From: an uncultured Pseudomonadota bacterium
Lineage (GTDB): Bacteria; BMS3Abin14
Length of the DNA: 51,753 nt
Reading direction: 5' to 3'
Assembly (NCBI GenBank): GCA_964454175.1
Contig: CAYVSA010000005.1
Coordinates: 2,201 to 53,953, forward strand
Shown here: positions 22,061 through 41,893 of the stretch, one piece after another
Numbering within the stretch: the first letter of the stretch is position 1
Layout of the letters: every line of letters begins with the position of its first letter
Made by a program: the position numbers and the translations under genes
The notes under the pieces: generated by a model
What the model saw: the letters and a program-made list of their open reading frames with translations, nothing else
What the model was told of the DNA's origin: nothing
The model's database searches: none

Positions 22061-22071
22061 TGTAATGCCCC

Positions 22072-22737: not shown

Positions 22738-22927
22738 GGCACCTTTCCTTTAGTAGTGAGGTTTAAGTTCTGGATTAATTTACAACTCCCGCCCTGGTTG
22801 CATTTACAGGGCTGAAACATCAAACTTTACGTGGTACTTTGAACAACCACCTCCTTCTGGGTCCACAACGACGGGCATGACGGCGAAGCGCCATCTGCCA
22901 TCAGCAGTTGCGGACGGGACCGTCCGG

Positions 22928-23464: not shown

Positions 23465-23479
23465 ATCAGCCTCCTGTGG

Positions 23480-25428: not shown

Positions 25429-25685
25429 TATTTACTCCCCCTCTTCCCTGACGGGTGAACCTCTATGGCGAAATCAGGACAGCTCACCTCGCAGAGCAGA
25501 CACTCGGTACACGCTTCGAGATTTACCACGCAGGCCTTGAAATCCTTCATATCAAGAACGCCGGCCGGGCATACCTTTACGCATATATCACAGCCTTTGC
25601 AGTACCTGGGGATGATCGCTATCTTTCGCTCCCCGTACTCGGCAACGACTGCTTCCTCCTTCTTACGGGCTGTATCAGCCATCAC
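25428..25685 (-). CDS. korD: 2[4Fe-4S] ferredoxin (delta subunit)
   Basis: CKGCDICVKVCP and CTECLLCEVSCP. Confidence 0.9.
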   Translation of the reverse strand: MMADTARKKEEAVVAEYGERKIAIIPRYCKGCDICVKVCPAGVLDMKDFKACVVNLEACTECLLCEVSCPDFAIEVHPSGKRGSK

Positions 25686-25694
25686 AACCTCCTG

Positions 25695-26570
25695 TCAGCG
25701 GCCAAGGACTTCGGCAACTGCCGTGCCGATATCGGCGGGACTTGAACTCACAGTGACCCCGGCCTCTTTAAGGGCAGCTACCTTTTCAGCAGCAGTGCCC
25801 TTGCCGCCGGCAATGATAGCACCGGCATGGCCCATCCTTTTTCCCGGGGGTGCAGTCTGGCCGGCGATAAAGGACACCACCGGCTTTTTGAATGTTGCTT
25901 TTATATAGGCAGCGGCTTCTTCTTCTGCCGATCCGCCGATCTCTCCGATCATTACGACCGCCTCTGTGCCATCGTCATCGTTAAAAAGCTTCAAAAGATC
26001 GGTAAAGGTGCTGCCGATGACCGGGTCACCTCCAATACCTATGCAGGTACTCTGTCCGATCCCTATTTCAGTCAACTGACCAACGGCCTCATAAGTAAGG
26101 GTTCCACTCCTGGATATCACACCCACCGTTCCCTGTTTGTGGATGAAACCAGGCATGATCCCCATCTTGCACTCGCCTGGAGTAATGACTCCCGGGCAGT
26201 TTGGCCCGATCAGCCTGACCCCGCGGCCCGCTATGGCATCTTTTGCCTTCACCATATCCAGGGTGGGGATACCTTCAGTAATGCACACAACCACACCCAC
26301 TCCTGCATCCGCTGCCTCGATGATCGCATCACCTGCGAAAGCAGGCGGTACGAATATGAGGGCCGCATTTGCTCCCTCCTTCTCAACGGCCTGGGTGACG
26401 GTGTTAAATACCGGTATGCCGTCCACATCCTGGCCGCCTTTTCCGGGAGTTACACCCGCTACTACATTAGACCCATACGCTACACACTGCTGAGTGTGAA
26501 ATGTGCCCTCGCGGCCGGTGATCCCCTGCACTACAACTCTGGTGTCACTGTTGACCAGGATGCTCATCAT
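25695..26570 (-). CDS. sucD: Succinyl-CoA synthetase alpha subunit
   Basis: [20 protein letters not shown], phospho-His RMGHAGA. Confidence 0.97.
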
Positions 26571-27739
26571 TCACCTCCCGAACCTGTGGCCGCCGAAACG
26601 GCCTTCTCCGCAGCCTGTTTGAGACCTTTTGCTGTTACGAATCCCAGGCCTGATCCTTCTATGAGACGCAGTCCCTCGTCCGCATTTGTCCCCTCCAGCC
26701 TGACAATGACCGGAACCTTCACGTCCAGAGCCTTCGCCGCATTGACGACTCCCTGGGCAACAATGTCACACCTCACTATGCCGCCGAATATATTGACCAG
26801 AACCGCCTTTACGTTCTTGTCTGCAAGGATGATCCTGAAGGCATTAGTTACGGATTCTTCCTTGGCACCGCCACCCACATCCAGAAAATTGGCAGGCTCG
26901 CCGCCAGACAGTTTGATGATATCCATGGTAGCCATAGCCAATCCCGCACCATTCACCATGCAGCCGACGTTCCCATCCAGCTTGATATATGACAGACCGA
27001 ACTTGGAGGCTTCTATCTCCAGGGCCTCCTCCTCTCCAAGGTCTCTCAGTTCGGTAACAGCCTCCTGCCGGTAGAGGGCATTGTCGTCAAAATTCAGCTT
27101 GGCGTCCAGTGCAATTACAGCTCCGTCACCGGTTGTGATAAGGGGATTTATCTCTGCCAGAGAGCAGTCCTTTTCTACGAAAAGCCTGTAAAGCTTCAGG
27201 ATAAATGAAGCCGCAGCAGAGGCAGTTTTTCCCTTAAGGCCCAGGCCGAAAGCCAGGTTTCTGGCCTGGTAGGGCATAAGTCCCATGTTTGGATCAGCGA
27301 ACTCCTTGAGGATCTTCTCGGGAGTTTCTGCCGCAACCTTCTCTATCTCAACGCCGCCCTCGGTGCTCGCCATTACTGCAATACTCTCGGAGGCCCTGTC
27401 CACGACCATTCCGAGGTAAAACTCCGAGGCGATATCAACTGCACCCTCAACGAGTACCTGGTTAACGACACTTCCACCGGGTCCAGTCTGAAAGGTTACC
27501 AGCGGCTTTCCGAGCAGGCCTCCTGCAACTTCGGACGCCTCTGCGGGCGTTCCAACGACCTTCACACCGCCTGCTTTGCCCCTTCCTCCAGCGTGGATCT
27601 GCGCTTTGACCACAACCCTTGTCCCGAGTGATTCGGCTATTGTACCTGCCGCCTCAGGAGCTGTGGCAACTCCGCCGTCCGGTACGGACACACCGTACTG
27701 CTTTAGTATCTCTTTTGCCTGGTATTCGTGGACTTTCAT
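26567..27739 (-). CDS. sucC: Succinyl-CoA synthetase beta subunit
   Basis: [42 protein letters not shown]. Confidence 0.97.
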
Positions 27740-27760
27740 GTAATTACCTCCGAAAGTAAA

Positions 27761-28318
27761 CTATGCTATCCTGAATTCCTTAACACCGTTTTTGTAAAGA
27801 TCGTTCCCTTCGCAGTCGTTGACAACAATGGCCGGAAAATCCTTGACCTCCAGCCTCCTGATCGCTTCCGGACCAAGGTCTTCATATGCGATTATTTCAC
27901 AGGAATCGATCCTCCTGGAGATGAGTGCGGCCGCCCCGCCCACTGCCGCCATGTACACAGCCTTGTGTTTGACTATGGATTCTATGACCTCAGGTGATCT
28001 TGAGCCTTTTCCGATCATTCCCTTAAGTCCCTTTTCAATGAGGATTGGGGAATAGGCGTCCATCCTGTAGCTGGTAGTTGGACCGGCAGAACCGATAGGT
28101 TCTCCGGGGCGTGACGGTGTTGGACCGACAAAGTAGATTATCTGTCCCTCCAGGTCCATGGGGAGCTTTTTTCCTTCAGCAATAAGGTCGACCAACCTCT
28201 TGTGCGCCGCATCCCGCCCGGTGAATATGGTGCCTGTGATAAGAACCTGGTCCCCCGCTCGCAGTGCTTCAACATCTGTGTCTTTCAGCGGCGGTGTAAG
28301 CCTGATGGGTTCAGCCAA
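27761..28318 (-). CDS. Fe-S fumarate hydratase (class I) beta subunit
   Basis: GRDAAHKRL, GPTTSYRMD, GKG; TCA-operon context favours fumarase over tartrate dehydratase. Confidence 0.9.
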   Translation of the reverse strand: MAEPIRLTPPLKDTDVEALRAGDQVLITGTIFTGRDAAHKRLVDLIAEGKKLPMDLEGQIIYFVGPTPSRPGEPIGSAGPTTSYRMDAYSPILIEKGLKGMIGKGSRSPEVIESIVKHKAVYMAAVGGAAALISRRIDSCEIIAYEDLGPEAIRRLEVKDFPAIVVNDCEGNDLYKNGVKEFRIA

Positions 28319-28330
28319 TTTGGTCCTCCC

Positions 28331-29170
28331 CTAGATTACCGTTTCCTTGTGCCTGTGTGCGTGGCAGTTGATATTCACAGCAACGGGCAGGCTGGCAATG
28401 TGACAAGGGTGCATCTGAATATGGACTGCAAGGGAAGTTGTTCTGCCCCCAAGCCCACCCGGTCCAATACCAAGATCGTTGACCCTTTCAAGGATCTGAG
28501 CTTCCATATCAGCCAGTTCAGGATCTTCGCTTGGCTGCCCGAGAGGCCTTAGAAGCGCCTCTTTTGCCAGCATCGCAGCCTTCTCGAATGTGCCGCCAAT
28601 ACCCACCCCGATAACAGTCGGCGGGCAGGGATTTGGACCTGATTCAGCCACCCTGTTCACGACGTAATCCATGATCCCATCTTTGCCGTCGGATGGTTTC
28701 AGCATCATCACGCGGCTCATATTCTCGCTGCCGCCGCCCTTGCCAGCAAGGGTAATTTTTACTTTTTCACCCGGTACGACCTTAAGATGAATGATCGCCG
28801 GTGTATTGTCCCCTGTGTTTTTCCTGGTAAATGGATGACACACACTCTTTCGCAGGAATCCTTCAGCATACCCCTGCCGAACACCCTCGTGAACTGCCTC
28901 CGAGATGTCACCTCCCGTGATGTGGACTTCCTGTCCAAGCTCGACGAATATTACAGCAAATCCTGTGTCCTGGCACATGGGATAAACGCCTTCCATGGCA
29001 ATGCCAGCGTTCTCGATCAGCTGCCTGATGATCTCCCTGCCTGTTGGTGAGGTTTCCGCGGCAAGGTTATCTTTCAGGGCCTCTTTAACATCATCACCGA
29101 GCTTATAGGCCGCTTCAATGGACATCTCTCTAACGGCTTCGGTGATCCGGGAAGATTCAATTTCTCTCAT
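28331..29170 (-). CDS. Fe-S fumarate hydratase (class I) alpha subunit
   Basis: CQDTG, KGGGSEN, NPCPP, CHAHRH; start moved to ATG 29170 (GGAG RBS). Confidence 0.9.
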   Translation of the reverse strand: MREIESSRITEAVREMSIEAAYKLGDDVKEALKDNLAAETSPTGREIIRQLIENAGIAMEGVYPMCQDTGFAVIFVELGQEVHITGGDISEAVHEGVRQGYAEGFLRKSVCHPFTRKNTGDNTPAIIHLKVVPGEKVKITLAGKGGGSENMSRVMMLKPSDGKDGIMDYVVNRVAESGPNPCPPTVIGVGIGGTFEKAAMLAKEALLRPLGQPSEDPELADMEAQILERVNDLGIGPGGLGGRTTSLAVHIQMHPCHIASLPVAVNINCHAHRHKETVI

Positions 29171-29335
29171 CAGTTGTTCTCCGGTAGATCCAGTTTCACC
29201 ACTCAACTGCACGCTACCTGGTACAAGGACGCGGGAAGACGCATCTTGTACACGCGGCAGCGTGAAAAAAGGGAGGACCGCCAGAATTCAAGAGCCCCCC
29301 CTCATAAAATCAAAAACTGACGTCGATACTTCCCA

Positions 29336-30274
29336 TCAAAGAGGAAGTTTTTCAACGTTTGACTTGATATCGCTCACAGACTCCTGAAGGGCGGCCATCT
29401 CCTCATCAGACAGGTCGATCTCAATAACTTTCTCGACACCGTCACCACCGATGATTGCAGGGACACCCACGTAGAGCCCACCTTTAACGCCGTACTCGCC
29501 TTCCAGACAGGCAGCAACAGGCAGGATCCTTTTTTTATCCTTGAGGATAGCTTCTGCCATCTGAACCGCCGAAGCCGAAGGAGAATAGTACGCACTTCCT
29601 GTCTTGAGAAGACCGACTATCTCACCTCCCGCTTTCCTCGTTCTCTCAACGATGGCATCTATGCGGTCCGCCGGGATCAGCTTTTCAATGGGGATACCGC
29701 CTGCGTAAGAATACCTCACCAGGGGAACCATGCTGTCGCCGTGGCCTCCCAGGACAAAAGCACTGGTGTCTTCAACGGAGATACCCAACTCCATGGCTAT
29801 GAAAGCCCTGAAACGTGCGCTGTCCAGGACCCCGGCCATTCCCAGGACCCGGTTTTTGGGGAAACCCGTGACGGCCCTGGCAACATAGGTCATTACATCA
29901 AGCGGGTTGCTGACGACGATAATAAATGCATCTGGCGAGTGCTTTGCACACTGTTCCGCACAACTCTTGACGATCTCAAAATTCTTTATGAGAAGGTCGT
30001 CCCTGCTCATACCTGGCTTTCTGGCCAGACCTGCAGTTATGATAACAACATCAGAACCGGCAGATTCCTCATAGCTGTTAGTGCCGATAATGCTGCAGTC
30101 AAAGCCTTCAACCGGCGCGGTCTCGACCATGTCAAGGGCCTTACCCTGGGGCATTCCCTCGACAATGTCTACAAGTACAATGTCGCCCAGTTCTTTAGAC
30201 GCAGCCCAATGGACGGCTGTAGCACCGACGTTGCCTGCACCGACTACTGTTATCTTGTTTCTCTTCATGGCCAT
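29336..30274 (-). CDS. mdh: Malate dehydrogenase (LDH-like)
   Basis: [22 protein letters not shown] (Arg specificity loop), VVSNPLD, LGGHGD. Confidence 0.96.
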
Positions 30275-30354
30275 TGTAACCCCCCTTTCACCTCATCCGC
30301 GTATCTTTCCAGGATAAAGCTGCTGGCAGCAATACTTCTGTAAGGGAAAATCAA

Positions 30355-30465
30355 CTACATCCGGTCGATGATCGCCTGCCCCAACTCAAAGCAGACTGTT
30401 TCCCTGGCATTTTCCATGTCGTAACCGGGAACTGTAAACTCTTTGAATTCATCCGTTAGATCCAC
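30355..30465 (-). pseudogene. 36-codon ORF resembling the extreme C-terminus of dimeric NADP-isocitrate dehydrogenase
   Basis: VDLTDEFKEFTVPGYDMENARETVCFELGQAIIDRM* versus the recalled Icd ending TVTYDFARLMEGAxxxKCSEFGxAIIxNM; lies 80 nt before mdh; an in-frame TAA at 30498-30496 rules out a full gene. Confidence 0.6.
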
Positions 30466-30530
30466 TTTAACAGCCCAGAAATTAATGAGCTCTCTTTAAG
30501 AATATTGGACTTTAACAACCATGCGGGAAT

Positions 30531-30563
30531 AAAAAAAGGGCCGGCAGTCGCAACCACCGCCCC
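30531..30563 (-). terminator. Intrinsic terminator
   Basis: GGGCGGUGGU-UGCG-ACUGCCGGCCC followed by UUUUUUU. Confidence 0.75.
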
Positions 30564-30674
30564 CCAATGACCTTCCACACCCCTGCTAACCGTGGAAAAG
30601 GGGGGAATAACCCCGAAACGGTAGTGGATAGCCAACCTTCGTTGAGAGACTCCTTCCGGCGTGAGCCGAGGTCA
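30531..30674 (-). ncRNA. Candidate structured RNA or attenuator leader ending in an intrinsic terminator
   Basis: Hand folding: closing UGACCU/AGGUCA helix enclosing hairpins CGGC-UCAC-GCCG, CAAC-GAAG-GUUG and UCCAC..ACCGU..GGGG-UUAUU-CCCC..ACGGU..GUGGA; then a GC hairpin with U7. No known family recognised. Confidence 0.5.
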
Positions 30675-30676
30675 AA

Positions 30677-30734
30677 TACAATTGTAGTATACTGTATATT
30701 GTATACCTATATAGGTGACAGTCCGGGCTGTCAA
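30677..30734 (-). promoter_or_regulatory. Promoter with stacked palindromes upstream of the TCA operon
   Basis: TTGACA 30734-30729, 17 nt, TATAGG (weak -10); palindromes TGACAG-N6-CTGTCA, ACCTATATAGGT, GTATAC twice and TACAATTGTA. Confidence 0.55.
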
Positions 30735-30804
30735 GCCATTTCATTCCCTTAAGAAGACAAAACATTATCTGAGATGAATATTACTGACAGGACCTGTCTT
30801 ATTC

Positions 30805-32601
30805 CTACTTTTTATGCCTCAATCCCAGTTCCTGGAGCTGTGCCGGTTCCACCTGGCTGGGTGCATCAGTCATCAGACAGATCGCTTTCTGGGTCTTGGG
30901 GAAGGGAATAACGTCTCTAATTGAGGCTGCACCGGAAAGTATCATCAATATTCGGTCAAGCCCGAAGGCGATCCCCCCGTGAGGAGGCGCCCCGAAACGT
31001 AATGCCTCAAGCAGAAAACCAAATTTTTCAGAAGCTTCTTCGCTATTAATGCCCAACAGCTCAAAAACCCTGCTCTGTACATCCTCCCTGTGTATCCTGA
31101 TACTGCCTCCCCCGATCTCAGACCCGTTCAGGACCATGTCATACGCCATTGCCCTAACTTTTCCAGGATCGGTCTCGAGGAGCGGCAGGTCCTCTTCAAC
31201 GGGAGCTGTAAAGGGATGGTGCATCGAGACGTAACGTCCCTGGTCGCCATCGTACTCAAAGAGCGGGAAATCCACTACCCAACAGAAGTCATATCTTCCT
31301 TCGGGCACGAGGTTAAGCAGCATGGCAAGGTGGACCCTCAGCTGTCCCAGGGATTCGTTAACCATACCAGCATCCCCTGCGATCACCAGCAGAAGGTCGC
31401 CTTCGGCAAAATCCGTGATTCGCGACACCTCTTCCCTGGCACCTTCATCAATGAATTTTGCCAGGGGCGACTGCCAGCCGTCAGGGATCCGCTTGAACCA
31501 TGCAAGCCCCTTCGCACCGTAGATCGAGACGAAACCAGTCAGATCGTCCAGTTCCTTCCTTGACATAGTCGAACCGCCTGGGACGCTCAGCCCTTTTATG
31601 ATGCCTCCGCCCTTGAGGGTTTCGGAAAATATCTTCGCTCCGGTGCTGCCCAGGACATCTGTGAGATCCTTTAATTCCAGTCCAAACCTGGTATCGGGGC
31701 GGTCAAGACCAAACCGGTCGATCGCCTCATTGAAAGGTATCCTTGTGAAAGGCCTCTTGACGTCCACATCGAGAGCAAACTTGAAAATATCTGCTACCAT
31801 CCTCTCCATAATGTCGAACAGGACGTCCACGGTTGGAAAGGATAACTCCACATCTATCTGCGTAAACTCCGGCTGTCTGTCAGCTCTCAGGTCCTCATCC
31901 CGAAAACAGTGCACAATTTGAAAGTACCTGTCGTACCCTGCGATCATCAAGATCTGTTTGAAAAGCTGTGGCGACTGGGGCAGGGCGAACATCCTGCCGG
32001 GATTGACCCTGCTGGGAACCAGGTAGTCCCGAGCCCCTTCCGGTGTGCTCTTGGTCAGAAAGGGCGTCTCCATCTCCAGAAATCCTTCGCCATAAAGAAA
32101 ATCCCTTACTTTTTTTGACACCCTCGACCTGAGAACCATATTCTCTTTCAGGCTCTCTCTTCTCAAGTCCAGATAGCGGTATTTCAGACGCACGTTTTCC
32201 GAGACGTCCCGGCCCTCACGCTCATCAAGAGAAAAGGGCGGAGTCAGGCTCTTGTTGAGCAGTTTCAGTTCATCTACGAGCACCTCGATCTCCCCGGTGG
32301 GCATCTCGGGGTTGAGCATGCCCTCGGGGCGGTCACAGACCACTCCACTGATGGCGATCACATACTCGGATCGGAGGTCTTCGGCCTTTGCGTGCGCATC
32401 ACCTGAGCGCTCAGGGTTGAAAACAACCTGGGTCAGACCCCATCTGTCCCTGAGGTCAACGAAAATAAGGCCGCCGTGGTCGCGCCTGCGGTGTACCCAG
32501 CCCATGAGAATAACTTTTTTACCTACATCTCCAGCAGAAAGAGAACCGCAGTCGTGAGTCCTCTGCCATTCGGACAACAGGTCCAGATCGATCTCGTTCA
32601 T
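30805..32601 (-). CDS. aspS: Aspartate-tRNA ligase, probably non-discriminating (Asp/Asn)
   Basis: [53 protein letters not shown]; start moved to ATG 32601. Confidence 0.97.
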
Positions 32602-32749
32602 AAATTTGCATGCCTCCCGTGAAAAACCAGGCTCAAGGGGCGGCCTGGCCAAAGAATATCTCTGTCAGTCAGAAGTAAGTTTTCCAGGTACTTTACCGGT
32701 AACAGGTGGTAAAAGATCCATCCAAAGTATTTTTCTCATCGAAAAATCA

Positions 32750-34417
32750 TCAACCGTGCCCTCTCAGTTTATTCAATACTGCCATTTGCTGCTGTATCTC
32801 CAGGGACATGGAGGCCAGATTGAGTAATATTTCGAGAGAATCGAGGTCGCGGATCGGTGTCCCTCCCGGAACTACATCACCATACATTATAGCCACCACA
32901 AGACTCTGTACAGTGATAGGCATTATCACGGCGTATTTCGGTGCAGGATCCCCTATTGCCCCGAGGAGGTCAAGACCAAGCGTATCTCCAGGTTCCTCTT
33001 CATGAATAACCTTTCCGGTGGACACTGCCTGGCTCAGAAGGTGTGATTGAGAAAGTTCGAAACTAAGGCCTTTGATCCTGCCGTTGAACTCATCGTCTTC
33101 CTTCCTCCGGTCATTACCGAAGAACCCTGACACCAAATTCTTTCGAACCAGGAATATTGCGCTTCGATCCATTTCGTTAGAGGCAAACTCAACGATGGTC
33201 TGCGCCATTTTGCCAAGGCTCTTTTCCCTGACCATCTTGTCGCTGGTCTGCCTCAGAAAACGGATGTCACCTGAATCCCGTTTCACGAGCTCCCCAACCT
33301 CCTGAAGCTCCTCCTGGGCCTGGACCAGCTGCGAGAGAAGCTCCTCGCGCAAAATGTTCTGCTGTTCCCTCTCGAAATAAACCTCGTGCCGCTGGATCAC
33401 ATTCTGTATGCACAGTGCAACCTCCTCAATGAAGAGATTGAGTTGATTTTCCAGTTCCTCCGGGGATATGTCCTTGCGCTCCGGCTTGTGGATATAGTAG
33501 GTTGCGCCCAGAAACAGGGCCCGCCTCCTTATGGTCGCATCCGGGTAGGCGGTGTTCACGATGACGGGTATGTGGCTGCTTGTTTTCTGGATCTCTTCGA
33601 GCAGCTCCAGGCCTCCGAATAGACCTTTTCCGCTAATAGTAGGCATTATAAGGTCTGACAGCACAATAGGAAGCTTTCCCTGTACATCGTACTCTGAGAG
33701 CTTGTTAAGGGCCTCATGCGGCGACTCCACCGCGTCCACCTCGAATCCGAAACTTTCCAGCTTGTCCTTGAACATCTCGCGCATGAGCGCCTCATCCTCA
33801 ACCATGAGAATGATCTCTTTCGGCTTCAATTCCCTCAGCTTGGCGCTCACCCGTTTAAGCACAGCGTTCACATTGCCGACGATGGAGCTTTCGATCTCAT
33901 CACTTCCTGGTATGAGCTCACCGAGCATCCAGTCCTCTTCCACCGCAGCGGCCAGCTGTCTGGCCTTCTCGGCCAATTCCTCTATGGGAGCAACGCCAAC
34001 GGATTCCCCCTCCGCGTCATCAGACTCCTCAACCCTGAAGAGGCCCTCGTCCCAGCTCAAAAGGTGAATCAGGGAATCTTCTACCACCGCCCGCATTGAG
34101 CTGCCAAGCGTAGCCTTGTCGATTATCCCCTGTTCAATAAGTATCTCACCAAGGTATGCCCTTTCACCCTTCTCCTTCTGTATTGTCAGGGCGTTCTGAA
34201 GCTCTTTTTCAGTAATTATATTGTTCCTCACAAGGTATCGACCGAGCCGGCTCCTGACCCGCGGTTCCCTTACATCGAGAACAACTCCACCCTTGAGCCT
34301 GACAGTGGCCAGACCAGTCTTGCCCTTGAGCGTAATAACCCCCGTAAATCCCTTGGCCTCGGCATTTTTCAGGATATCCACTACAGATTTGCTCTTAAGG
34401 CTTCCGGATGTAACCAT
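32750..34417 (-). CDS. DUF4388-type N-domain with MshEN-like motifs + receiver + GAF-like C-domain
   Basis: RLGRYLVRNNIITEKELQNALTIQ and YLGEILIEQGII; LLSWDEGLFRV; REC (VEDE, LSDLIMP, NTAY, HKP); C-terminal VIMPITVQSLVVAIMYGD. TGATG overlap with the hisS stop fixes the start at 34417. Confidence 0.8.
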   Translation of the reverse strand: MVTSGSLKSKSVVDILKNAEAKGFTGVITLKGKTGLATVRLKGGVVLDVREPRVRSRLGRYLVRNNIITEKELQNALTIQKEKGERAYLGEILIEQGIIDKATLGSSMRAVVEDSLIHLLSWDEGLFRVEESDDAEGESVGVAPIEELAEKARQLAAAVEEDWMLGELIPGSDEIESSIVGNVNAVLKRVSAKLRELKPKEIILMVEDEALMREMFKDKLESFGFEVDAVESPHEALNKLSEYDVQGKLPIVLSDLIMPTISGKGLFGGLELLEEIQKTSSHIPVIVNTAYPDATIRRRALFLGATYYIHKPERKDISPEELENQLNLFIEEVALCIQNVIQRHEVYFEREQQNILREELLSQLVQAQEELQEVGELVKRDSGDIRFLRQTSDKMVREKSLGKMAQTIVEFASNEMDRSAIFLVRKNLVSGFFGNDRRKEDDEFNGRIKGLSFELSQSHLLSQAVSTGKVIHEEEPGDTLGLDLLGAIGDPAPKYAVIMPITVQSLVVAIMYGDVVPGGTPIRDLDSLEILLNLASMSLEIQQQMAVLNKLRGHG

Positions 34418-35691
34418 CACTCTTCTCCTTTCGAGTACCCACAACCGCACCCCGTACCTTTAAGAAGTTCATCCACCGGGACCTCCTCCTGTGTTTTGTT
34501 CCTGAAGTCCTTTATCTTCACAACGCCCCTTGACATCTCATCATCCCCCAGGATGATGACACGTTCTACTCCCAGTTTGTTGGCGCTTCTCAACTGCGCT
34601 TTCAGGCTCCTGTCCTCAAGGTCCGATCGCACTCTGTAGCCGCAGCCGCGGAGTCTGTCGGCAATGCTCATGGCGGCGACCCTGGCCCCGCTTGTTGCCG
34701 AAGCCACAAAGTAATCCAACTCCGGCAGTCCATTGTCAGGCCGATCCACAATATGGCCCAACCTCTCTAAGCCTATCGCAAACCCTATCCCGGGGACATC
34801 GCCCCCGATCTCCCTGGCCAGGCCATCGTACCTGCCGCCGGCAGCAACTGCATTCTGTGATCCGAGCCGTTCACAGACTGCTTCAAAAGCCGTCCGGTTG
34901 TAGTAGTCAAGTCCCCTGACTATCTTCGGATCAACCTCGTACGGCACCTCCAGGCCGTCCAGACCATCTGTCACCCTCTGGAAGTGAACCAGACAATCAG
35001 GGCACAGATAGTCCAACATTACCGGTGCCTTTTCAAGGGCCTCTCTGCACCCTGGGACCTTGCAGTCCAGGACTCTCAGGGGGTTTGTCTGCATCCTTCT
35101 TTTACAGTCGCCGCACAACAGATCAACCTGTTTATCCAGATAAACGACCAGGGCCTTCCTGAAGGGCGGTCTGCACGACTCGCACCCCAGAGAGTTGACC
35201 AGCATTTTCGTATCCGCAACGCCGAGCAGGACGAATAGCCTGTGAAGCAGATCGATCACCTCCGCATCAACAAGGGGGGCCTCACTGCCGAGGGCCTCCA
35301 ACCCCATCTGATAGAATTGGCGGTACCTGCCCTTCTGCGGTTTTTCATATCGGAACATGGGACCGGAATAGTACAGTTTGGAAAGCCCACCTCTGGATTT
35401 CCAGCCACCTTCAAGATAGGCTCTCACGGCAGAAGCCGTTCCTTCCGGACGCAAGGTGATGCTCTTTCCCTTCCGGTCGGAAAAAGTGTACATCTCCTTT
35501 TCCACGATGTCGGTAGACTCCCCAATGGACCTGGCAAACAGCTCTGTTGCTTCCACAAGGGGAAGCCGGATCTCATGGTAGCCGTAGCTCTGGAAATGAT
35601 CCCCTGCCAAGCGTTCGATCTCGCTGAGCTTGTGAGCTTCCTGCTGATCAATATCGCGGAATCCACGAATCGCCTTGATCCTGTTCGCCAT
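34417..35691 (-). CDS. hisS: Histidine-tRNA ligase
   Basis: EKEMYTF, LRPEGTA, FRYEKPQKGRYRQF, RGLDYY, GGRYDGL. Confidence 0.97.
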   Translation of the reverse strand: MANRIKAIRGFRDIDQQEAHKLSEIERLAGDHFQSYGYHEIRLPLVEATELFARSIGESTDIVEKEMYTFSDRKGKSITLRPEGTASAVRAYLEGGWKSRGGLSKLYYSGPMFRYEKPQKGRYRQFYQMGLEALGSEAPLVDAEVIDLLHRLFVLLGVADTKMLVNSLGCESCRPPFRKALVVYLDKQVDLLCGDCKRRMQTNPLRVLDCKVPGCREALEKAPVMLDYLCPDCLVHFQRVTDGLDGLEVPYEVDPKIVRGLDYYNRTAFEAVCERLGSQNAVAAGGRYDGLAREIGGDVPGIGFAIGLERLGHIVDRPDNGLPELDYFVASATSGARVAAMSIADRLRGCGYRVRSDLEDRSLKAQLRSANKLGVERVIILGDDEMSRGVVKIKDFRNKTQEEVPVDELLKGTGCGCGYSKGEE

Positions 35692-35700
35692 CCCGGATGC

Positions 35701-37149
35701 CTACCCCTGATCCTTGACCGGCGGATTTTCAGGCTCGATTTCGCTCCGGCTTGCCGTTCTTTCGGGGGCGGCTATGTAAACAACGTTCTTCCTCCCGAAT
35801 TTACCCCTGTACATTGCCTCGTCCGCAAGGTGAAGGAGCTCGATCTTTCCGGTTGCATGCTCAGGATAGGAAGCGACGCCGATGGAGATGGTAAGCCTTA
35901 TATTGTAGCCTTCCTCTCTCATGAAAACATAGCTTTCAACTGTCTCCCGGATCCTTTCAGCAACGATCCTGGCTCCTCCGGAAGTAGTGTCAGTCAGGAC
36001 AACAATGTACTCATCCCCGCCGTAACGGGCTACGGCATCTACTTTCCTGACGGCCTGCTTGAGAATTCCCGCCATTTCGATCAGGATCTTGCTACCCACA
36101 AGGTGGCCGTGTTTGTCATTTACCTGCTTGAATGAATCCAGGTCAAGGAAGAGTATCGACATATGGGTGTTCAGGCGCTGAGCCCTCAGTAACTCCCTGT
36201 CCAGGATGTTGTTGAGATAGCGGTAATTGAAAACGTTCGTCAGGTCATCGGTGATCGTCAGTATCTTTGCCTGGGAGTAGAGGAGCGCATTTTCGATGGC
36301 CGCACCGGCGTGTTCGGACAAAAAGGCTGCCACGTGTGTATCTCTTTCCGTAAATGCTCCTTCTCTTTCTGTATCGAAAAATACGACCATCCCGACCAGA
36401 TCCTTCTTGTTCCTGAGAGGAATAAATATGATCGACCGGATATGGTCAACGCTCGTTCGGAATTTAACCTGCAAAGAAGCGATCTTCTCGGGGATGACCG
36501 GGCCCACGGCCGAAGACATGACGTCCGTGTAGGCGGTGAAGACGTCGCTGTCGATGCTGTCGTTTAATTCAACGTCGAATCCCTCCGAGGCGATCACATT
36601 TGATTCGCCCTGCTCCTGGTCAAGAAGATATAAAAACCCCCGGGTCGCTCCGGTTTCCTGCATGAGCAGATCAAAAATGAGCTCGTAAAGCTCTTCGATC
36701 TCTATGGTTCTCGTGATCCTGCTTCCAATGTTGTGGAGCTTCAAACTGCTTTTCAGCTCCCTGTTTTCCTGGGCCAGCCTTATCTTGTCTATGGCACGGT
36801 GCACAACTATCTTGAACTCGGGCGGATTAAGTGGTTTTCTGATGTAGTCAAGGGCCCCCAGCTTCATGGCCTTCACAGCGCTTTCCACAGTGCCATGACC
36901 TGTAATGACGATGATCTCGAGGCCTGGCATTTCTTTCCGCGCCCAGTCAATAAGATCCAGACCAGACTTTTCGGGCATGACCATGTCAGTAACAACCAGG
37001 TCAATACCGCCCTGGTTAATCAAGTCGATAGCCTCGTCTACGCCCGGCGCTTCGCTGACTTCGAAAACTTCTTCTTCTTCCAGAATTTCGCGACAGAAAA
37101 CTCTGGCAAATTTGTCATCATCCACGACGAGAATTCGGGATTTGTTCAA
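35701..37149 (-). CDS. gacA: REC-GAF-GGDEF dinucleotide cyclase, Hypr type (probable 3',3'-cGAMP synthase)
   Basis: DLDSFKQVNDKHGHLVGS has Ser (codon 36093-36091) where c-di-GMP-specific enzymes have Asp; RKVD I-site; GGDEY; intact REC; comEC-gene-hisS order. Start moved to TTG 37149 (GGGAG RBS). Confidence 0.82.
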   Translation of the reverse strand: MNKSRILVVDDDKFARVFCREILEEEEVFEVSEAPGVDEAIDLINQGGIDLVVTDMVMPEKSGLDLIDWARKEMPGLEIIVITGHGTVESAVKAMKLGALDYIRKPLNPPEFKIVVHRAIDKIRLAQENRELKSSLKLHNIGSRITRTIEIEELYELIFDLLMQETGATRGFLYLLDQEQGESNVIASEGFDVELNDSIDSDVFTAYTDVMSSAVGPVIPEKIASLQVKFRTSVDHIRSIIFIPLRNKKDLVGMVVFFDTEREGAFTERDTHVAAFLSEHAGAAIENALLYSQAKILTITDDLTNVFNYRYLNNILDRELLRAQRLNTHMSILFLDLDSFKQVNDKHGHLVGSKILIEMAGILKQAVRKVDAVARYGGDEYIVVLTDTTSGGARIVAERIRETVESYVFMREEGYNIRLTISIGVASYPEHATGKIELLHLADEAMYRGKFGRKNVVYIAAPERTASRSEIEPENPPVKDQG

Positions 37150-37197
37150 ATTTGATCTCCCGTAAAATTCATCTAACAATTTAGAAAATAACACTTT

Positions 37198-37226
37198 TTC
37201 TTATCAGAAGGGCATACCCTTGTCAA
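37198..37226 (-). promoter_or_regulatory. Possible sigma70 promoter of the gacA-hisS unit
   Basis: TTGACA 37226-37221, 17 nt, TAAGAA preceded by TG; the -10 is imperfect. Confidence 0.35.
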
Positions 37227-37288
37227 TAACCACCATCATAACTCACCGGAATGCAGGGTAAAAAACCATACCAGCCCTACCTGGTGCT

Positions 37289-39613
37289 TCACCAGAACCC
37301 CGGAAGGCCGCTCTTATTTGTGGAGGAAAAAATGCTGATCCCGTCTCCGATCCCGGTGGTCCTGAATGGTATGCCCCGCCTCTCGAACCACTTTACCACT
37401 GTCATGGAGGGAAGCGATGAGGTGCCCGGTTTTCTGGCAGTGCACACTGCAAGTGAAAGAGCCGGCATTTTCCTGGAAAACCCTTCCCCTGAAAATCTTC
37501 CAAATCCGTTTGCACTTCCGTGATGCGGTACCTTGAGAACATCCAGACTACCAAACTCTTCCCACTCCGAGATCACCTTTTCCCATGGAGAGTCCCCTGT
37601 GAACAGAACATGAAAATGTCTCCAGCTCATCCCGGTAGACAGTGAAGTCCTGTTAAGGTCGTTCCTGTCTGCAATAAGTCCTTCTCCAGGCCAGAATATC
37701 CTGAACTTTATTTCTCCTTCCACGATCCTGTCACCCCTTTTTACGAAAGACACCCTGGTACCGGATGAACACCACTTCAGGACATTTTGCCAGAGGCCCA
37801 GACCTCCTCTGGTTTGAGGCAGTACAAGACGCCTTACAGGATAGTTTCTCAGAAGAAAGACAGCTCCGCCCATGTGATCTGGATGATTATGGGTCAGGAA
37901 TAGCACGTCTATCTTATTTATGCCCCGACGTTCAAGGTAGCGCGCGATCACCGGCGTTCCGGTGCCGGGATCTGGGCGGCCCGTATCGACAAGGACCGTT
38001 TTGCCCCCGGTCTGGATAATAGCTGCATCCGACTGTCCGATCCCCGGAAAAGTCACCAGAATTCCGTGTCGCAGCCTGCTTCGCTCAATTTCATTTCCTG
38101 CTGCCCCAAGTATCACCGGGATGAGTACGAGTACTGCACAGCGCCTGAGGGAACCCTTCCATCTGAGCCACAGGAATACTGAAACCACTGCACCTGAAGA
38201 AGCTAACACGGATCCGGAAGGGTTCAAAGGAAGCCAGACCCACGGCATTACCGCTGCCTTTTCTATAAATATCAGCACAGGTGTTGCGATAATTTTCCAG
38301 ACGGTGAATATCCATCCACTGATCGCAGGTGAGACAACTGCGAAAAAATCGCCCACCACTGCAAGGGGGATGAGAACAAAAGCAAAGGGCACGATGGTGA
38401 TCGTGTTGATAACAGGGCCAAGAACCGGGATCCCCCTGAAGATCACCGTTATGAGCGGGAGTGTTCCGAGAAATGCACCCATGGACACCCTCAGGGAGCC
38501 GAAAATGAAACTGTCGCCCTTTCTTACCGACGAGGCAATTCCCAGGCACGCAGCGACAGAAAGGCATAGTGACAGATCTGGCTGCGGTCTTCCTGACAAC
38601 GAAGAGATGACCACAAAAGCCACAGCGATGTTGTTGGTAAGGGATGTCTCTCTGCCAATGACAGGGGCCACCAGAAAGATCACAGCGAAAAACGCGGCCC
38701 TGCTCGAAGAAGTACTGATACCGGTCACTGCAAGGTAGAAGACTACCAGCAGACCTCCACACCATGCAGAAGTGAGGTAGAAGAGAACCCCCTGCTGACC
38801 GGCAGGAAGGCCAGCACCTAGAAGCCGCAACAGGATCATGCCTGCCAGCAGGGCAGAAGCGACATGGACACCAGATATGGCAAGGAGATGATATGTGCCG
38901 GTGTGTCTCAGCGCAAAAGACAATTTTCCCGATGTACGCCCTCTTATACCCGCTGCGATGGCAGAGAGCACAGCAGCGGCATCTGCGGGTCCTGTTTCCG
39001 CCAGCATGATAATCCTGCTGCGTACTTTCCCCAGAGCGCCCGAAACCACGGGTCTTGTTATCAGGAACAATTCCCCATTTTTCAGGTTACTTCGGTAAAA
39101 AGGAGCACCTTTCCCCCCGGTTTTTACCAGAGAAGCCCTGAAACGAATTCGGTCTCCAGGCAACAGATCTTCATGGGCAGTTTTCAGGAAAACTGTAAAG
39201 TTGGTTTTCTGCCTGATCTTTCCCGCAGTGGATCCCACATGAACCAGCAGTTCCAGTTTTCCATCAGTTCCGTTTCCTGTTGACAGCACTGTTCCTTCCA
39301 GTGTCTCCGACCGGAGCCTGTCCGGCATGGAACTCTTTTTCACAGCGTGTTTTATCGCGGTGAGCACACCTCCGGCAAAGCCGGTCGCCGCTACAGAAAG
39401 CGTTGATGGCCTTAAAAACGTTCCAGCAAAGATCGCTGCAGACTGGAAGAGCACTCTTTCGGCCGAAACCGGGAACTGTCCCGCTGCGAACAGGCCAGGC
39501 AGAAAGCCGCAGGCCAGTACTGCTGCCTGGAATCGAAAAGCCAGGGAATGCGCTGCAACCAGTTTTAAGCATCCCTGCCTGTTTTCCTCCCCCTGGGGCT
39601 TTTTCACAAACAT
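37289..39613 (-). CDS. comEC: ComEC/Rec2 DNA-uptake channel with metallo-beta-lactamase domain
   Basis: HLLAISGVHV, SSSRAA, multiple TMs, GQSDA, THNHPDHMGG, FTGD, KVPHHGS; start uncertain. Confidence 0.88.
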   Translation of the reverse strand: MFVKKPQGEENRQGCLKLVAAHSLAFRFQAAVLACGFLPGLFAAGQFPVSAERVLFQSAAIFAGTFLRPSTLSVAATGFAGGVLTAIKHAVKKSSMPDRLRSETLEGTVLSTGNGTDGKLELLVHVGSTAGKIRQKTNFTVFLKTAHEDLLPGDRIRFRASLVKTGGKGAPFYRSNLKNGELFLITRPVVSGALGKVRSRIIMLAETGPADAAAVLSAIAAGIRGRTSGKLSFALRHTGTYHLLAISGVHVASALLAGMILLRLLGAGLPAGQQGVLFYLTSAWCGGLLVVFYLAVTGISTSSSRAAFFAVIFLVAPVIGRETSLTNNIAVAFVVISSLSGRPQPDLSLCLSVAACLGIASSVRKGDSFIFGSLRVSMGAFLGTLPLITVIFRGIPVLGPVINTITIVPFAFVLIPLAVVGDFFAVVSPAISGWIFTVWKIIATPVLIFIEKAAVMPWVWLPLNPSGSVLASSGAVVSVFLWLRWKGSLRRCAVLVLIPVILGAAGNEIERSRLRHGILVTFPGIGQSDAAIIQTGGKTVLVDTGRPDPGTGTPVIARYLERRGINKIDVLFLTHNHPDHMGGAVFLLRNYPVRRLVLPQTRGGLGLWQNVLKWCSSGTRVSFVKRGDRIVEGEIKFRIFWPGEGLIADRNDLNRTSLSTGMSWRHFHVLFTGDSPWEKVISEWEEFGSLDVLKVPHHGSANGFGRFSGEGFSRKMPALSLAVCTARKPGTSSLPSMTVVKWFERRGIPFRTTGIGDGISIFSSTNKSGLPGFW

Positions 39614-39791: not shown

Positions 39792-41051
39792 TTACCTGCC
39801 CTTTCTAAAAAGGCCGAGCAGTCCCTTCCTCCCCTTTTTCCCGGCAGGTCCGGAGCCTTTTTCTTCTTCCTGACTCGAGTCCTCTATGTCCAGCTCGTGA
39901 AAAGTCGGATCGTACCGTGGGGCAGGTGCCGTAACTGGCTCGGAAAGTTCTTCGACAGGTATTTCCCCGGAAACAGGAGCCGTTGGGACATCCAGTGATG
40001 ATTCATTCTCACCCGGGCGATCCTGTACGGGCTGTACAGGCTCCTCAGCCTTTGTCTGGATCGGTTTAACGTACAGTTCAATCTTTCGCCCGTCTTCTGC
40101 GTCTTCTCCGTACCGGGTACTTTTCAGGACCCGGGCAACCAGAGCCAGTTTCAGGTGCAGTTTACCGCCCTCCGGCAGAGGCACATCGAGGTCCAGTATC
40201 GCGCCGTCGGCAGACGAGCCTCCAGCAGACTCGGGTTTTCCTGCCGCCTCCTGTGCCTGGTTATGATCGGCTTCTTCTTCTATCTGCTCATCTTCAGCCA
40301 TTTCGGGCAGCACCATTACAGGTTGGACGCGGGACGCAGTATTGGAATGAGGGTCAACTGGCGACTCCCCGACGGGGGTCGATGCACGGGCAGGTTCGGG
40401 GGGCGCGGCATTATGCATCGCTTCGCCACCGGTTTCAGCAGTCTGACTGTCCTGGCCGTTTTGCGGCAGATCGTCTCTGGCCTCCCGGACTACCAGCTTC
40501 ACTACTTCCCTTAGCGTCTCCAGGACACCGGTACCTTCAGTAGCCACCGCTTCTGTCATCGGCATCCCGTACCTGTTGAGGAGATGCTTTATGGTGCTAA
40601 TAGGCATCAGATTTTCGAGATCGCGCTTGTTGCACTGGATAAGGTGAGGAAGGCTTTTCAGTTCCTTGCCATGTGACTGAAGGTTCTTTTCCAGGTTGAG
40701 AATGCTCTCGATGTTTGCATCCTTCATGGTCATCTGCGAATCGGCTACGAATACGATACCATCAACTCCCTTGAGCACCAGCTTGCGCGTAGCGTTGTAG
40801 TGAACCTGGCCGGGCACTGTATAAAGATGCATGCGTATCTTGTAACCGCCCATCTCACCAAGGTCCACCGGCAGAAAATCGAAAAACAGGGTTCTGTCCG
40901 TCTGTGTCGCAAGAGAAACCAGCTTCCCCTTGAATTTCGATTTTATCTGTTCGTGTATGTACTGGATGTTAGTCGTTTTACCGGAAAGACCGGGACCGTA
41001 GTATACAACCTTGAAATTGACCTCTTTTTTATGAAAATCAATGACCGGCAT
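39792..41051 (-). CDS. MglA-family small GTPase with ~230 aa C-terminal extension
   Basis: KVVYYGPGLSGKTTN, DRTLFFDF, YTVPGQ, NKRD; acidic Pro-rich extension. Confidence 0.9.
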   Translation of the reverse strand: MPVIDFHKKEVNFKVVYYGPGLSGKTTNIQYIHEQIKSKFKGKLVSLATQTDRTLFFDFLPVDLGEMGGYKIRMHLYTVPGQVHYNATRKLVLKGVDGIVFVADSQMTMKDANIESILNLEKNLQSHGKELKSLPHLIQCNKRDLENLMPISTIKHLLNRYGMPMTEAVATEGTGVLETLREVVKLVVREARDDLPQNGQDSQTAETGGEAMHNAAPPEPARASTPVGESPVDPHSNTASRVQPVMVLPEMAEDEQIEEEADHNQAQEAAGKPESAGGSSADGAILDLDVPLPEGGKLHLKLALVARVLKSTRYGEDAEDGRKIELYVKPIQTKAEEPVQPVQDRPGENESSLDVPTAPVSGEIPVEELSEPVTAPAPRYDPTFHELDIEDSSQEEEKGSGPAGKKGRKGLLGLFRKGR

Positions 41052-41055
41052 CGTA

Positions 41056-41856
41056 CTACCTGCTCTTCCTCTTCTGGGCGATCAGCCTTTTGGCGTTAGC
41101 TCTCAGTGCTGATGGCAGGGACCGACTGGCGTCGATCAACTCCAGGTCACGCAGGTTCATCCTGGGGAGGAACCTGATACTCACATCTAAAGGTGTCTTG
41201 GGATTGAACATAAGGCTTTTCACTATGTTCCTGTTACTTGTCCACTCTCTGTTACGGCCAATGGTTCTGAGTATCTCGGAATTGGTGCCCGTATTTTTCG
41301 TGAGAAGCTCCAGTTCGCTTTCCTTTATTCCAGGGTTTTCGAGGACGGACATATAAACTTCCCTGTTAGTATCTTTTACCAGGAGGTTCCTTGCTTCCTT
41401 GTCGCCCTTAAAGGCCAGCTTGATCTTCTCACCTACGTTCATTTTCTGGATGCGCTGCTCCATGGACAGACGCTTGTGATCTTCTGGTTCGGCTTTGTCT
41501 TCCGGCGCACGATTCCTGGCAGCATCTGCACCTTTTACCGGAGCGGCCGCAGCTGAGTTGTCCATAAAGGCGCCATCCTCACCGAGAAATTCGTGCAGGT
41601 ATACGGGAAGAGACGGATTTTTTTTGAGGGCCTTCACCCACTCTAAACGACCGCTGGAGTGCCTTGCAAAAAAGTCCAGTATTTCCACGGACAGGTCCGG
41701 ATCTGAGAGGACATCAGCCATTTCAGCAGGAGGTGCAGCCTTTATGCCGCTCACAGCCGAATGACGCTCGTCAGGGCTTGAGGAGGTCATCATGCCGAAA
41801 AGTTCGGTAAGCTTTTGAGTTGTTATCTTACCCAGAGGACTACCCCATTTCATCAC
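41056..41856 (-). CDS. Hypothetical alpha-helical repeat protein
   Basis: 266 aa, good codon context, 4 nt before the GTPase gene; C-domain QRIQKMNVGEKIKLAFKGDKEARNLL...NPKTPL resembles conserved deltaproteobacterial hypotheticals (recalled). Confidence 0.75.
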   Translation of the reverse strand: MMKWGSPLGKITTQKLTELFGMMTSSSPDERHSAVSGIKAAPPAEMADVLSDPDLSVEILDFFARHSSGRLEWVKALKKNPSLPVYLHEFLGEDGAFMDNSAAAAPVKGADAARNRAPEDKAEPEDHKRLSMEQRIQKMNVGEKIKLAFKGDKEARNLLVKDTNREVYMSVLENPGIKESELELLTKNTGTNSEILRTIGRNREWTSNRNIVKSLMFNPKTPLDVSIRFLPRMNLRDLELIDASRSLPSALRANAKRLIAQKRKSR

Positions 41857-41893
41857 ACCAGGTCAGGAGGGTTCTACAAAGTTCAGGATTCGA

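Follow-up and report, generated by a model that had tools for sequence, protein, structure and literature searches.

Gene order and protein architecture

The 51,753-nt stretch of contig CAYVSA010000005.1 from an uncultured Pseudomonadota bacterium that was analysed here, hereafter the window, carries on its minus strand the gene string comEC, a REC-GAF-GGDEF gene, hisS, a gene for a 555-residue response regulator, and aspS. The response regulator gene, referred to below as the target, is the subject of this work, and the coordinates of genes, signals and protein domains are collected in Table 1. By reading the junctions directly from the sequence, we found that the TGA of hisS (34419..34417) and the ATG of the target (34417..34415) share one nucleotide in a TGATG overlap, with an AAGGAG Shine-Dalgarno sequence located within hisS 7 nt 5′ of the target ATG, and that the GGDEF gene ends with a TAG at 35701, leaving 9 nt (gcatccggg) before the hisS ATG at 35691. 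Both junctions are as given in a preliminary description of this DNA. The hisS-target junction is tight in relatives too, being a 4-nt overlap at two related loci (L003 and L004) and a 13-nt gap at another (L001).

The same Met (MxTSGSLKS) opens 82 close homologues of 552–557 residues, and a longer open reading frame of 566 residues with a GTG start was ruled out as the target gene because some 80 of these homologues share that start. In consensus scans, the interval from comEC to the GGDEF gene showed a hairpin resembling a terminator, then a promoter-like site; another, strong terminator-like hairpin was predicted behind aspS and none between the target and aspS. These signals fit one GGDEF-hisS-target-aspS transcription unit, of which aspS would probably be the last gene. 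Among public sequencing runs one contains this sequence, a microbial-mat DNA metagenome, and no RNA run does.

Table 1. Genes, predicted signals and protein domains of the target locus (positions in the window; residues of the target protein).
Feature	Position	Strand	Residues	Basis and remarks
Target gene	32750..34417	minus	1–555	PATAN (with MshEN_N insert)-REC-helix-GAF-like response regulator, without enzymatic output
hisS (histidyl-tRNA synthetase)	34417..35691	minus		Pfam tRNA-synt_His, 159 bits
REC-GAF-GGDEF gene, GacA-type Hypr	35701..37194	minus		Pfam REC, GAF_2, GGDEF
aspS	30805..32652	minus		97 nt downstream of target; Pfam tRNA-synt_2, GAD, OB
comEC	37289..39613	minus		heads the string comEC, REC-GAF-GGDEF, hisS, target, aspS
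Terminator-like hairpin after comEC	37285..37270	minus		consensus scan only
Promoter-like site 5′ of GGDEF gene	37262..37235	minus		consensus scan only
Strong terminator-like hairpin with T-run, 3′ of aspS	30539..30561	minus		consensus scan
PATAN core, N-terminal β-strands	34253..34417	minus	1–55	Pfam PF14332; AlphaFold2 strands at residues 2–6, 26–32, 35–42, 45–50
MshEN_N-type four-helix insert (α-clip)	34058..34252	minus	56–120	predicted cyclic-dinucleotide pocket inside PATAN
Half-site 1, RLGRYLVRNNIITEKELQNALTIQ	34178..34249	minus	57–80	canonical except Asn66 at turn Gly
Half-site 2, YLGEILIEQGIIDKATLGSSMRAV	34085..34156	minus	88–111	Gly and hydrophobics kept; Arg38 to Tyr, Gln61 to Val
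Receiver domain, phospho-acceptor Asp255	33464..33820	minus	200–318	Pfam PF00072
Long helix from REC to GAF-like domain	33293..33463	minus	319–375	about 57 residues; AlphaFold2, low confidence at residues 364–385
GAF-like C-terminal domain	32753..33268	minus	384–555	GAF hits of homologues and Foldseek match of model

By its domain sequence, the target protein is a PatA-type response regulator, that is, a PATAN-REC protein. The Pfam family PATAN/DUF4388 (PF14332) matches residues 4–82 and a second stretch with 69.3 bits against a cut-off of 25, and in the AlphaFold2 model PATAN β-strands flank both sides of a helical insert, the α-clip, with helices predicted at residues 57–64, 70–83, 89–95 and 101–120; beyond PATAN, the model continues with a helical linker, the receiver, the long helix and an α/β domain. 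The preliminary description was right in seeing MshEN-like motifs in this region, and is to be amended in that the N-domain is PATAN/DUF4388 with an MshEN_N module inserted. C-terminal to PATAN, Response_reg (PF00072) matches residues 203–315 with 64 bits, and the receiver, previously called intact, proved to have a complete phospho-acceptor pocket in the homologue alignment, in which D208, D255 and K311 are invariant, T289 is nearly so and E207 is conserved.

For the C-terminal region, precomputed matches to PF13185/PF01590 (GAF_2/GAF) are present in many homologues, and the best Foldseek matches of the AlphaFold2 model over its C-terminal two-thirds are the REC-GAF structures 6OAQ, 6OAP and 6OB8 (E 2e-11, about 365 columns), the TM-score of 6OAQ and 6OAP being low because the domains are oriented differently. 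The GAF-like tail proposed earlier thereby gains support from homologues and fold, whereas the target itself has no Pfam GAF match at E ≤ 1. The model has a pLDDT (predicted local distance difference test score) of 77 at full length and 87 for residues 1–160, and the Foldseek matches of the full-length model are mostly receiver domains. Pfam and NCBIfam scans found neither a catalytic nor a DNA-binding domain in the target, in agreement with the earlier statement that it lacks an enzymatic output. No che genes were found in the 51.7-kb window, so the chemosensory (CheA/CheW) linkage that serves as a criterion for PatA-type regulators is absent from it.

MshEN-like half-sites and the neighbouring Hypr GGDEF

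The relation of the α-clip to MshEN domains was found by profile searches. The N-terminal family profile matches Thermus thermophilus PilF (E 1e-15), Geobacter PilB (7.6e-10) and Vibrio cholerae MshE (5HTL; 3.6e-8), the region homologous to GSPII/MshEN domains being residues 53–111, and the NCBIfam model NF053729, named as a binding domain for cyclic di-GMP (c-di-GMP; “c-di-GMP-binding domain, MshE-related”), matches residues 57–104 with 47 bits against a cut-off of 38 (E 1.7e-12). Both peptides quoted in the preliminary description were located, RLGRYLVRNNIITEKELQNALTIQ at residues 57–80 and YLGEILIEQGII at residues 88–99, well beyond chance.

The MshEN domain is laid out as two 24-residue motifs with a 5-residue linker, in which guanine O6/N7 is read by the backbone amides of Gly11 and Gly40, the bases are sandwiched by the clusters Leu10/Leu54/Leu58 and Leu25/Leu29/Leu39, base stacking is provided by Arg9 and Arg38, and ribose and phosphate are contacted by Gln32 and Gln61 (Wang et al., 2016; PMC5013675). 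In the same study, mutation of the glycines abolished binding and that of any hydrophobic residue caused a >10-fold loss, while changes of Arg9, Asp12 or Gln32 lowered affinity <5-fold. In the target, Gly11 and Gly40 correspond to G59 and G90, which do not vary among 79 close and 2 distant homologues, and the equivalents of the hydrophobic clusters (L58, L104 and M108; L73, L77 and L89) are conserved in the 79. Half-site 1 is kept throughout, with R57, L58, G59, N66, L73, L77 and Q80 invariant or nearly so in these 79 homologues. The Arg at position 1 and the Gln at position 24 are present in half-site 1 (R57 and Q80) and not in half-site 2, where the Arg38 position (residue 88) is Phe in 65 and Tyr in 7 of the 79, the target being among the latter, and the Gln61 position (residue 111) is Val in every one. 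Y88 and V111 are outside even the relaxed motif [RKPN]...[QNKRYWST] (PMC5013675), although the corresponding substitutions in half-site 1 of MshE lower affinity <5-fold.

Two further deviations concern the turns and the spacing. At the turn glycines, N66 replaces Gly18, and position 97 (Gly47) is Gly in the target and Ala in most relatives; the target separates its half-sites by 7 residues and most relatives do so by 6, the canonical length being 5. The Asn at the conserved Gly, noted in the preliminary description, is no evidence of a new specificity: Geobacter PilB (5ZFR, 5TSG) reads SRLGELLVRNNIITKEQLAKAL..Q, with the same RNN turn and a 7-residue spacer. Since Geobacter PilB shares both, Asn66 and the long spacer are ordinary variants, and Asn66 was rejected as a mark of altered specificity. 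The two half-sites claimed earlier are genuine motifs, with the corrections that the second also lacks its terminal Gln (Val111) and that the spacer is 7 residues.

In a set of 76 other PATAN proteins, the Gln61 position is occupied by Gln in 63 and by Val in none, and Tyr stands at the Arg38 position in 2. PATAN inserts generally keep the MshEN determinants, with Gly11 in 71, Gly40 in 72, Gln32 in 70 and Gln61 in 63 of the 76 and the hydrophobic residues throughout. Judged by sequence, the site of the target appears competent for a guanine-containing dinucleotide, its second half being unusual.

For the GGDEF gene, the likely true start is the TTG at 37149 (482 residues), as in the called product P0087, which is more probable than a start at 37194. 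The closest solved structure to its product is the Hypr GGDEF fusion 6d9m (183 bits, versus 119 for PleD). Its motifs are FNYRY, with Tyr at the cross-dimer site, GHLVGS, with Ser348, GGDEY, and an RKVD I-site; residue alignment showed FNYRY, GHLVGS and GGDE[Y/F] in both this protein and 6d9m, and the Hypr pattern was found in all 117 closest homologues. Hypr enzymes are defined by Ser/Thr348 with GGDE[F/Y] and a non-Arg cross-dimer residue, and those with Tyr, Ser, Ala or Gln at the cross-dimer position make mainly cyclic GMP-AMP (cGAMP) (Hallberg et al., 2019). By these published criteria the upstream enzyme should be a cGAMP producer, and the intact RxxD I-site suggests cross-inhibition by c-di-GMP, by analogy with GacB. 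Ser348, the cross-dimer Tyr, GGDEY, RxxD and the best relative 6d9m together support the earlier assignment of this neighbour as a gacA-type Hypr GGDEF.

The order of comEC followed by a GacA-type Hypr GGDEF gene was observed in the window (35701..39613) and at two other loci (L059 5525..10870 and L060 4455..8401); it is shared with Geomonas ferrireducens (comEC-gacA-hisS) and with CP070770.1, the chromosome of a metagenome-assembled genome (MAG), in which comEC-gacA is followed by an FHA/sigma-54 activator. It is notable that genes for a competence channel and a tRNA synthetase flank the predicted cGAMP synthase over so wide a distance. Rfam scans of the window and 8 related loci found neither a GEMM nor any other riboswitch.

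Gene contexts of homologues and the proposed function

An N-domain profile search of 1.84 billion representatives matched 17,191 clusters, and three full-length orthologue clusters (P0244, P0280 and P0239) were aligned to the target at 33–37% identity. The P0244-lineage orthologue is present on five contig records, at 100% identity to P0244 on L063, L064 and L067 and at 81% on L068 and L069. The orthologue is preceded, at a distance of 17 nt (L067), by a REC-GAF-HD-GYP gene, whose HD-GYP reads RPPQ on L063, L064 and L067 and RPYK on the sister contig L068, and a GAF-GGDEF gene is located about 2 kb downstream, past two opposite-strand genes (L063, L068, L069). This GAF-GGDEF is 32% identical to the window's enzyme and has GHLMGS (Ser348), NARY (cross-dimer Ala) and GGDEF, and its 3′ end overlaps a dCache-HAMP-HD-GYP gene of PmxA architecture with RPYQ. 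The signature Rxx(Q/N), present in 4.69% of HD-GYPs, marks cGAMP-specific phosphodiesterases.

This compact predicted cGAMP island of an uncultured sediment lineage (L069 1..6729; L067 1296..5301; L063; L068) is followed by a FecR-domain protein. An HD-GYP gene that lies near the target or its orthologue and has a FecR-domain protein gene directly behind it occurs in two unrelated lineages, with a CHASE2-GAF-HD-GYP and a dCache-HAMP-HD-GYP (L007 12905..15902; L069 5047..8203).

A different arrangement was found around P0384, which is 53% identical to P0239 and is encoded on a 1.04-Mb contig (L148 1..12899). Here the same-strand order is a REC-PAS-GGDEF (Asp348), a GspH-like protein, an N_methyl protein, a PilX_N protein, a 1647-residue N_methyl/Big_1 protein, the orthologue, and a REC-HD-GYP (RPYR); the members from GspH-like to N_methyl/Big_1 are of the type IV minor-pilin kind. 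In the tier-1 genome CP070698.1, a CHASE2-GAF-HD-GYP (RPYR) gene lies 3 kb downstream of the target. In three of the five orthologue lineages (P0244, P0384 and the window's own), a gene for making or hydrolysing dinucleotides is either the direct neighbour or separated by a single gene, the enzymes being of Hypr type in two of them and canonical in one; as a rough expectation, such immediate adjacency would be seen for only a few per cent of genes, even where dozens of these enzymes are present. Based on these recurrent, differently arranged neighbourhoods and on the conserved pocket, the best reading of the sequences is that the target may be a cyclic-dinucleotide effector, which we consider moderately probable.

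The evidence has also to be read with the alternative in mind that the α-clip is a protein-contact surface only and takes no nucleotide, the target being an ordinary PatA-type regulator that came to its position behind gacA-hisS by an accidental insertion in the lineage. We hold this to be improbable, and the following observations speak for it or weigh against an effector. The order comEC-GGDEF-hisS-target-aspS is kept at every locus examined of the window's own lineage, and so is the whole neighbourhood from the SPOR-domain gene to mdh, housekeeping genes included; because the entire surrounding region is syntenic, adjacency within the lineage is weak evidence, and lineage synteny was rejected as proof of coupling. 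In Geomonas ferrireducens, comEC-gacA-hisS is followed by neither a target homologue nor aspS, and three other Hypr GGDEF loci are likewise without a target homologue. As gacA-hisS is present in Geomonas without the target, this link is older than the target and independent of it, and the target was thus inserted between hisS and aspS in the window's lineage.

The same holds for the remaining homologues and for the module itself. Two orthologue lineages have no nearby cyclic-dinucleotide genes: on L071 (P0280-like, a 154-kb contig) no GGDEF or HD-GYP gene was found within 10 kb of the orthologue, which has divergent GAF/PAS histidine kinases upstream and a ParA-like ATPase downstream, and for P0357 (L147; “Candidatus Zymog...”; a 169-kb contig) no dinucleotide genes were found within 10 kb, in a context of Rnf, NUDIX, a single REC and UvrD. 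Full-length homologues in Desulfuromonadales/Geobacteraceae MAGs (22–26% identity) head chemosensory clusters, far from any GGDEF gene, from which the broader family is to be regarded as PatA-type chemosensory regulators. The MshEN determinants are general to PATAN inserts, as seen in the 76 proteins above, and when the N-domain model (pLDDT 87) was compared with the PDB by Foldseek, no match fell below E 0.08, so that membership in the fold is assigned from sequence profiles and predicted helices only. Cyanobacterial PATAN binds PilB1 and PilC, with the insert proposed as a mimic of the PilB N-terminus, and c-di-GMP is not bound by some MshEN-like domains that are similar overall, such as XpsE and PilF GSPII-A. 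The chemosensory clusters mentioned have the order PATAN-REC-GAF-like, CheY, CheA, AAA_22 ATPase, CheW, CheY, CheW (L027 8001..14851; also L015–L028).

A role in protein contact alone is, however, opposed by the retention, under strong conservation, of all residue classes known to be critical; the non-binder XpsE, unlike the target, has lost Gly11, Gly40 and several Leu. Against it stands also a near or immediate adjacency to GGDEF or HD-GYP genes that recurs, in different arrangements, in three of five orthologue lineages.

For the target as a cyclic-dinucleotide effector, the ligand may be either c-di-GMP or cGAMP. In favour of c-di-GMP are the canonical determinants, the reading of guanine through the backbone, the preference of VcMshEN, the c-di-GMP-binding protein Bd2402 and the canonical enzymes at P0384; in favour of cGAMP are the two Hypr contexts, the RxxQ phosphodiesterases and the aromatic residue at the stacking position, the last in the window's lineage only. 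In its strongest form the latter case would make the target a dedicated receptor of 3′,3′-cGAMP, whose altered half-site 2 reads the adenine half and which serves as the protein reader of the Hypr GGDEF pathway. The Hypr neighbours are indeed of two subtypes, GacA-like and the 32% identical GAF-GGDEF, in two unrelated arrangements, and the HD-GYPs of the P0244 lineage carry RPYQ and RPPQ, that is, the signature of cGAMP phosphodiesterases. Phe/Tyr at Arg38 and Val at Gln61 are conserved in the 79 sequences and atypical among PATAN inserts, and a parallel is offered by the Hypr GGDEFs themselves, whose own change of a base-stacking Arg to Tyr relaxes guanine preference.

Several facts count against such a dedicated receptor, which we therefore judge unlikely. 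The only MshEN domain with a measured cGAMP affinity, VcMshEN, strongly prefers c-di-GMP, with a dissociation constant of 330 µM for cGAMP versus 0.5 µM for c-di-GMP, a difference of about 660-fold (PMC5013675), and the guanine-reading backbone amides are unchanged in the target. The HD-GYP upstream of the orthologue on L068 reads RPYK, in the P0384 lineage the neighbours are an Asp348 GGDEF and an RPYR HD-GYP, and Bd2402, which has Phe at an Arg position, binds c-di-GMP. Moreover, the P0244 orthologue, in the most cGAMP-flavoured cluster of all, has a canonical half-site 2 ending in Gln; the change in half-site 2 is for this reason an unreliable marker, and Phe/Tyr88 with Val111 was rejected as tracking Hypr linkage. 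Selectivity for cGAMP over c-di-GMP accordingly stays a tentative and doubtful proposal, and the fullest version, in which the PATAN-MshEN_N-REC-GAF family is the protein reader of Hypr cGAMP, joining cGAMP and phosphorylation to type IV pilus-like machinery through a half-site 2 rebuilt for adenine in the window's lineage, is in our view quite improbable. Of the cGAMP receptor or effector named in the preliminary description, the Hypr neighbour, the genuine MshEN_N module and the recurrence beside dinucleotide enzymes stand, and cGAMP as the ligand is no more than a possibility.

From the domain anatomy, motif conservation, gene junctions and recurrent neighbourhoods described above, we infer nucleotide binding, the identity of the nucleotide, the kinase and the partner as follows. 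The target would be a non-enzymatic adaptor of PatA type with two or three inputs. Its MshEN_N module may bind a cyclic-dinucleotide product of the Hypr GGDEF, whose gene stands two positions upstream on the predicted shared mRNA, half-site 1 acting as the canonical guanine reader and half-site 2 offering an aromatic residue for the stacking Arg and Val for Gln. With half-site 1 canonical and half-site 2 altered, its Gly and hydrophobic residues nevertheless being kept, the pocket would be expected to accommodate ligands of the c-di-GMP kind and at least to tolerate 3′,3′-cGAMP. The same output would be tuned by an unlinked kinase that phosphorylates Asp255 and by the GAF-like tail, the latter through dimerisation or through a further ligand. 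This output would be a contact with other proteins, those of type IV pilus or secretion-type machinery being the most likely partners. By analogy, the output domain is probably PATAN, which in Synechocystis suffices alone for function and binds PilB1 and PilC's N-terminal domain, and whose helical insert has been likened to the beginning of the N-domains of secretion ATPases (Han et al., bioRxiv 10.1101/2021.06.11.447907). Insertions in Geobacter pilB and pilA-C alter a cGAMP reporter (PMC8835794), and this effect and the minor-pilin context of P0384 point the same way, to a pilus-type output. Taken whole, including the dinucleotide-binding module and the contact output, this adaptor reading has in our estimate slightly better than an even chance of being right.

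Elsewhere in the window, a REC-PilZ protein, a candidate c-di-GMP receptor, is encoded at 17692..18414 on the plus strand, 15 kb away from the target; its counterpart on the related chromosome CP070682.1 (L003 951..1649) lies within about 1.4 kb of comEC, near GGDEF-hisS-target. On the other side of comEC, genes for a SPOR-domain protein, a 419-residue protein and then a 266-residue protein occupy 39792..43144 (minus strand), and this trio is syntenic at L001, L004, L006 and L075. The latter two proteins had been described as MglA-like and RomR-like, for which no homology evidence was found: the 419-residue protein has weak Ras/Arf and small-GTPase matches, with NCBIfam small_GTP below its cut-off and Pfam Ras and Arf just above theirs, and the 266-residue protein has no family match. 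A 460-nt non-coding stretch between aspS and mdh (30343..30805) holds the aspS terminator-like hairpin and has no Rfam match; at about 30680..30715 an AT-rich run contains many short palindromes of the GTATAC type. Behind the operon, a co-directional block of tricarboxylic acid (TCA) cycle genes (19374..30274, minus strand) comprises mdh, a two-subunit fumarase, sucCD, subunits of 2-oxoglutarate:ferredoxin oxidoreductase, and succinate dehydrogenase/fumarate reductase. The oxoglutarate:ferredoxin enzyme is a hint that the organism may be an anaerobe or use the reverse TCA cycle. A gene (18437..19186, minus strand) flanked by those for succinate dehydrogenase and REC-PilZ encodes a 249-residue protein that consists almost wholly of ankyrin repeats (Pfam Ank, 160 bits).

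Comparison with known systems

Among characterised proteins, Bd2402 of Bdellovibrio bacteriovorus is a c-di-GMP-binding response regulator known from a capture-compound screen cited by Wang et al. (2016; PMC5013675). Like the target, it combines a response regulator with an MshEN_N-only module and has no enzymatic output, and in it, too, an aromatic residue (Phe) replaces one motif “Arg” and Asn replaces one of the turn glycines. Its organism also has a Hypr GGDEF, Bd0367, and no gene linkage of the two was found in the literature. It differs from the target in that REC comes first (REC-MshEN_N-other domain), with no PATAN core or GAF tail listed, and in that the degenerate and canonical half-sites stand in the opposite order.

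The secretion and pilus ATPases MshE, PilB and PilF (5HTL, 5ZFR, 5TSG, 6F8L) share with the target the tandem 24-residue motifs, the four helices and the Gly/Leu determinants, and half-site 1 of the target is nearly identical to that of Geobacter PilB (SRLGxxLVRNNIITxxxLxxALxxQ). Unlike these proteins, the target has no attached secretion ATPase and no MshEN_C/N1 subdomain, its module is inserted in the PATAN β-core, and its half-site 2 lacks Arg and Gln.

The cyanobacterial PatA-type regulators PixG, PixE, LsiR, TaxP and PatA resemble the target in having an N-terminal PATAN with a two-hairpin helical insert, followed by REC. Their output is by protein contact, with PilB1 and the PilC N-terminal domain, and many of them are encoded in chemosensory clusters. 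The target, in contrast, has an extra long helix and a GAF-like domain after REC, and shares its operon not with che genes but with a Hypr GGDEF gene and genes for tRNA synthetases. In the literature searched we found no report of nucleotide binding by cyanobacterial PATAN inserts. The sequence comparison raises the possibility that PatA-type regulators at large, the cyanobacterial phototaxis ones included, might sense cyclic dinucleotides directly.

With regard to cGAMP signalling, the Hypr writer and eraser signatures of GacA/GacB and of PmxA-type HD-GYPs recur in the target's neighbour and in the P0244-lineage genes. Unlike GacA, GacB and PmxA, which make or break down the signal, the target lacks a catalytic domain. 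The Hypr cGAMP pathway as described in the literature has GacA, GacB and Bd0367 as writers, PmxA-type HD-GYPs as erasers and GEMM-Ib riboswitches as readers, and no protein reader was found in the literature searched. Myxobacteria and Bdellovibrio use the Hypr GGDEF/cGAMP pathway, and to our knowledge GEMM-Ib riboswitches are not known in either.

Proteins of MshEN-REC and REC-MshEN_N type have already been listed as receptors of c-di-GMP or as candidates for this role, and PatA-type regulators have been the subject of much work. What appears to be new, within the literature searched, is the orthologue group with PATAN-MshEN_N-REC-GAF architecture, the recurrence of its genes beside those for Hypr GGDEFs and RxxQ HD-GYPs, and the retention of MshEN binding determinants by PATAN inserts at large. 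The undescribed synthase-plus-effector system put forward in the preliminary description is therefore to be qualified: no protein reader of cGAMP was found in the literature, whereas response regulators with MshEN_N are already listed as receptors of c-di-GMP. If the target simply binds c-di-GMP, it would be a modest addition to the list of MshEN receptors; as it stands the system is of moderate interest, and this would become high if recognition of cGAMP were true.

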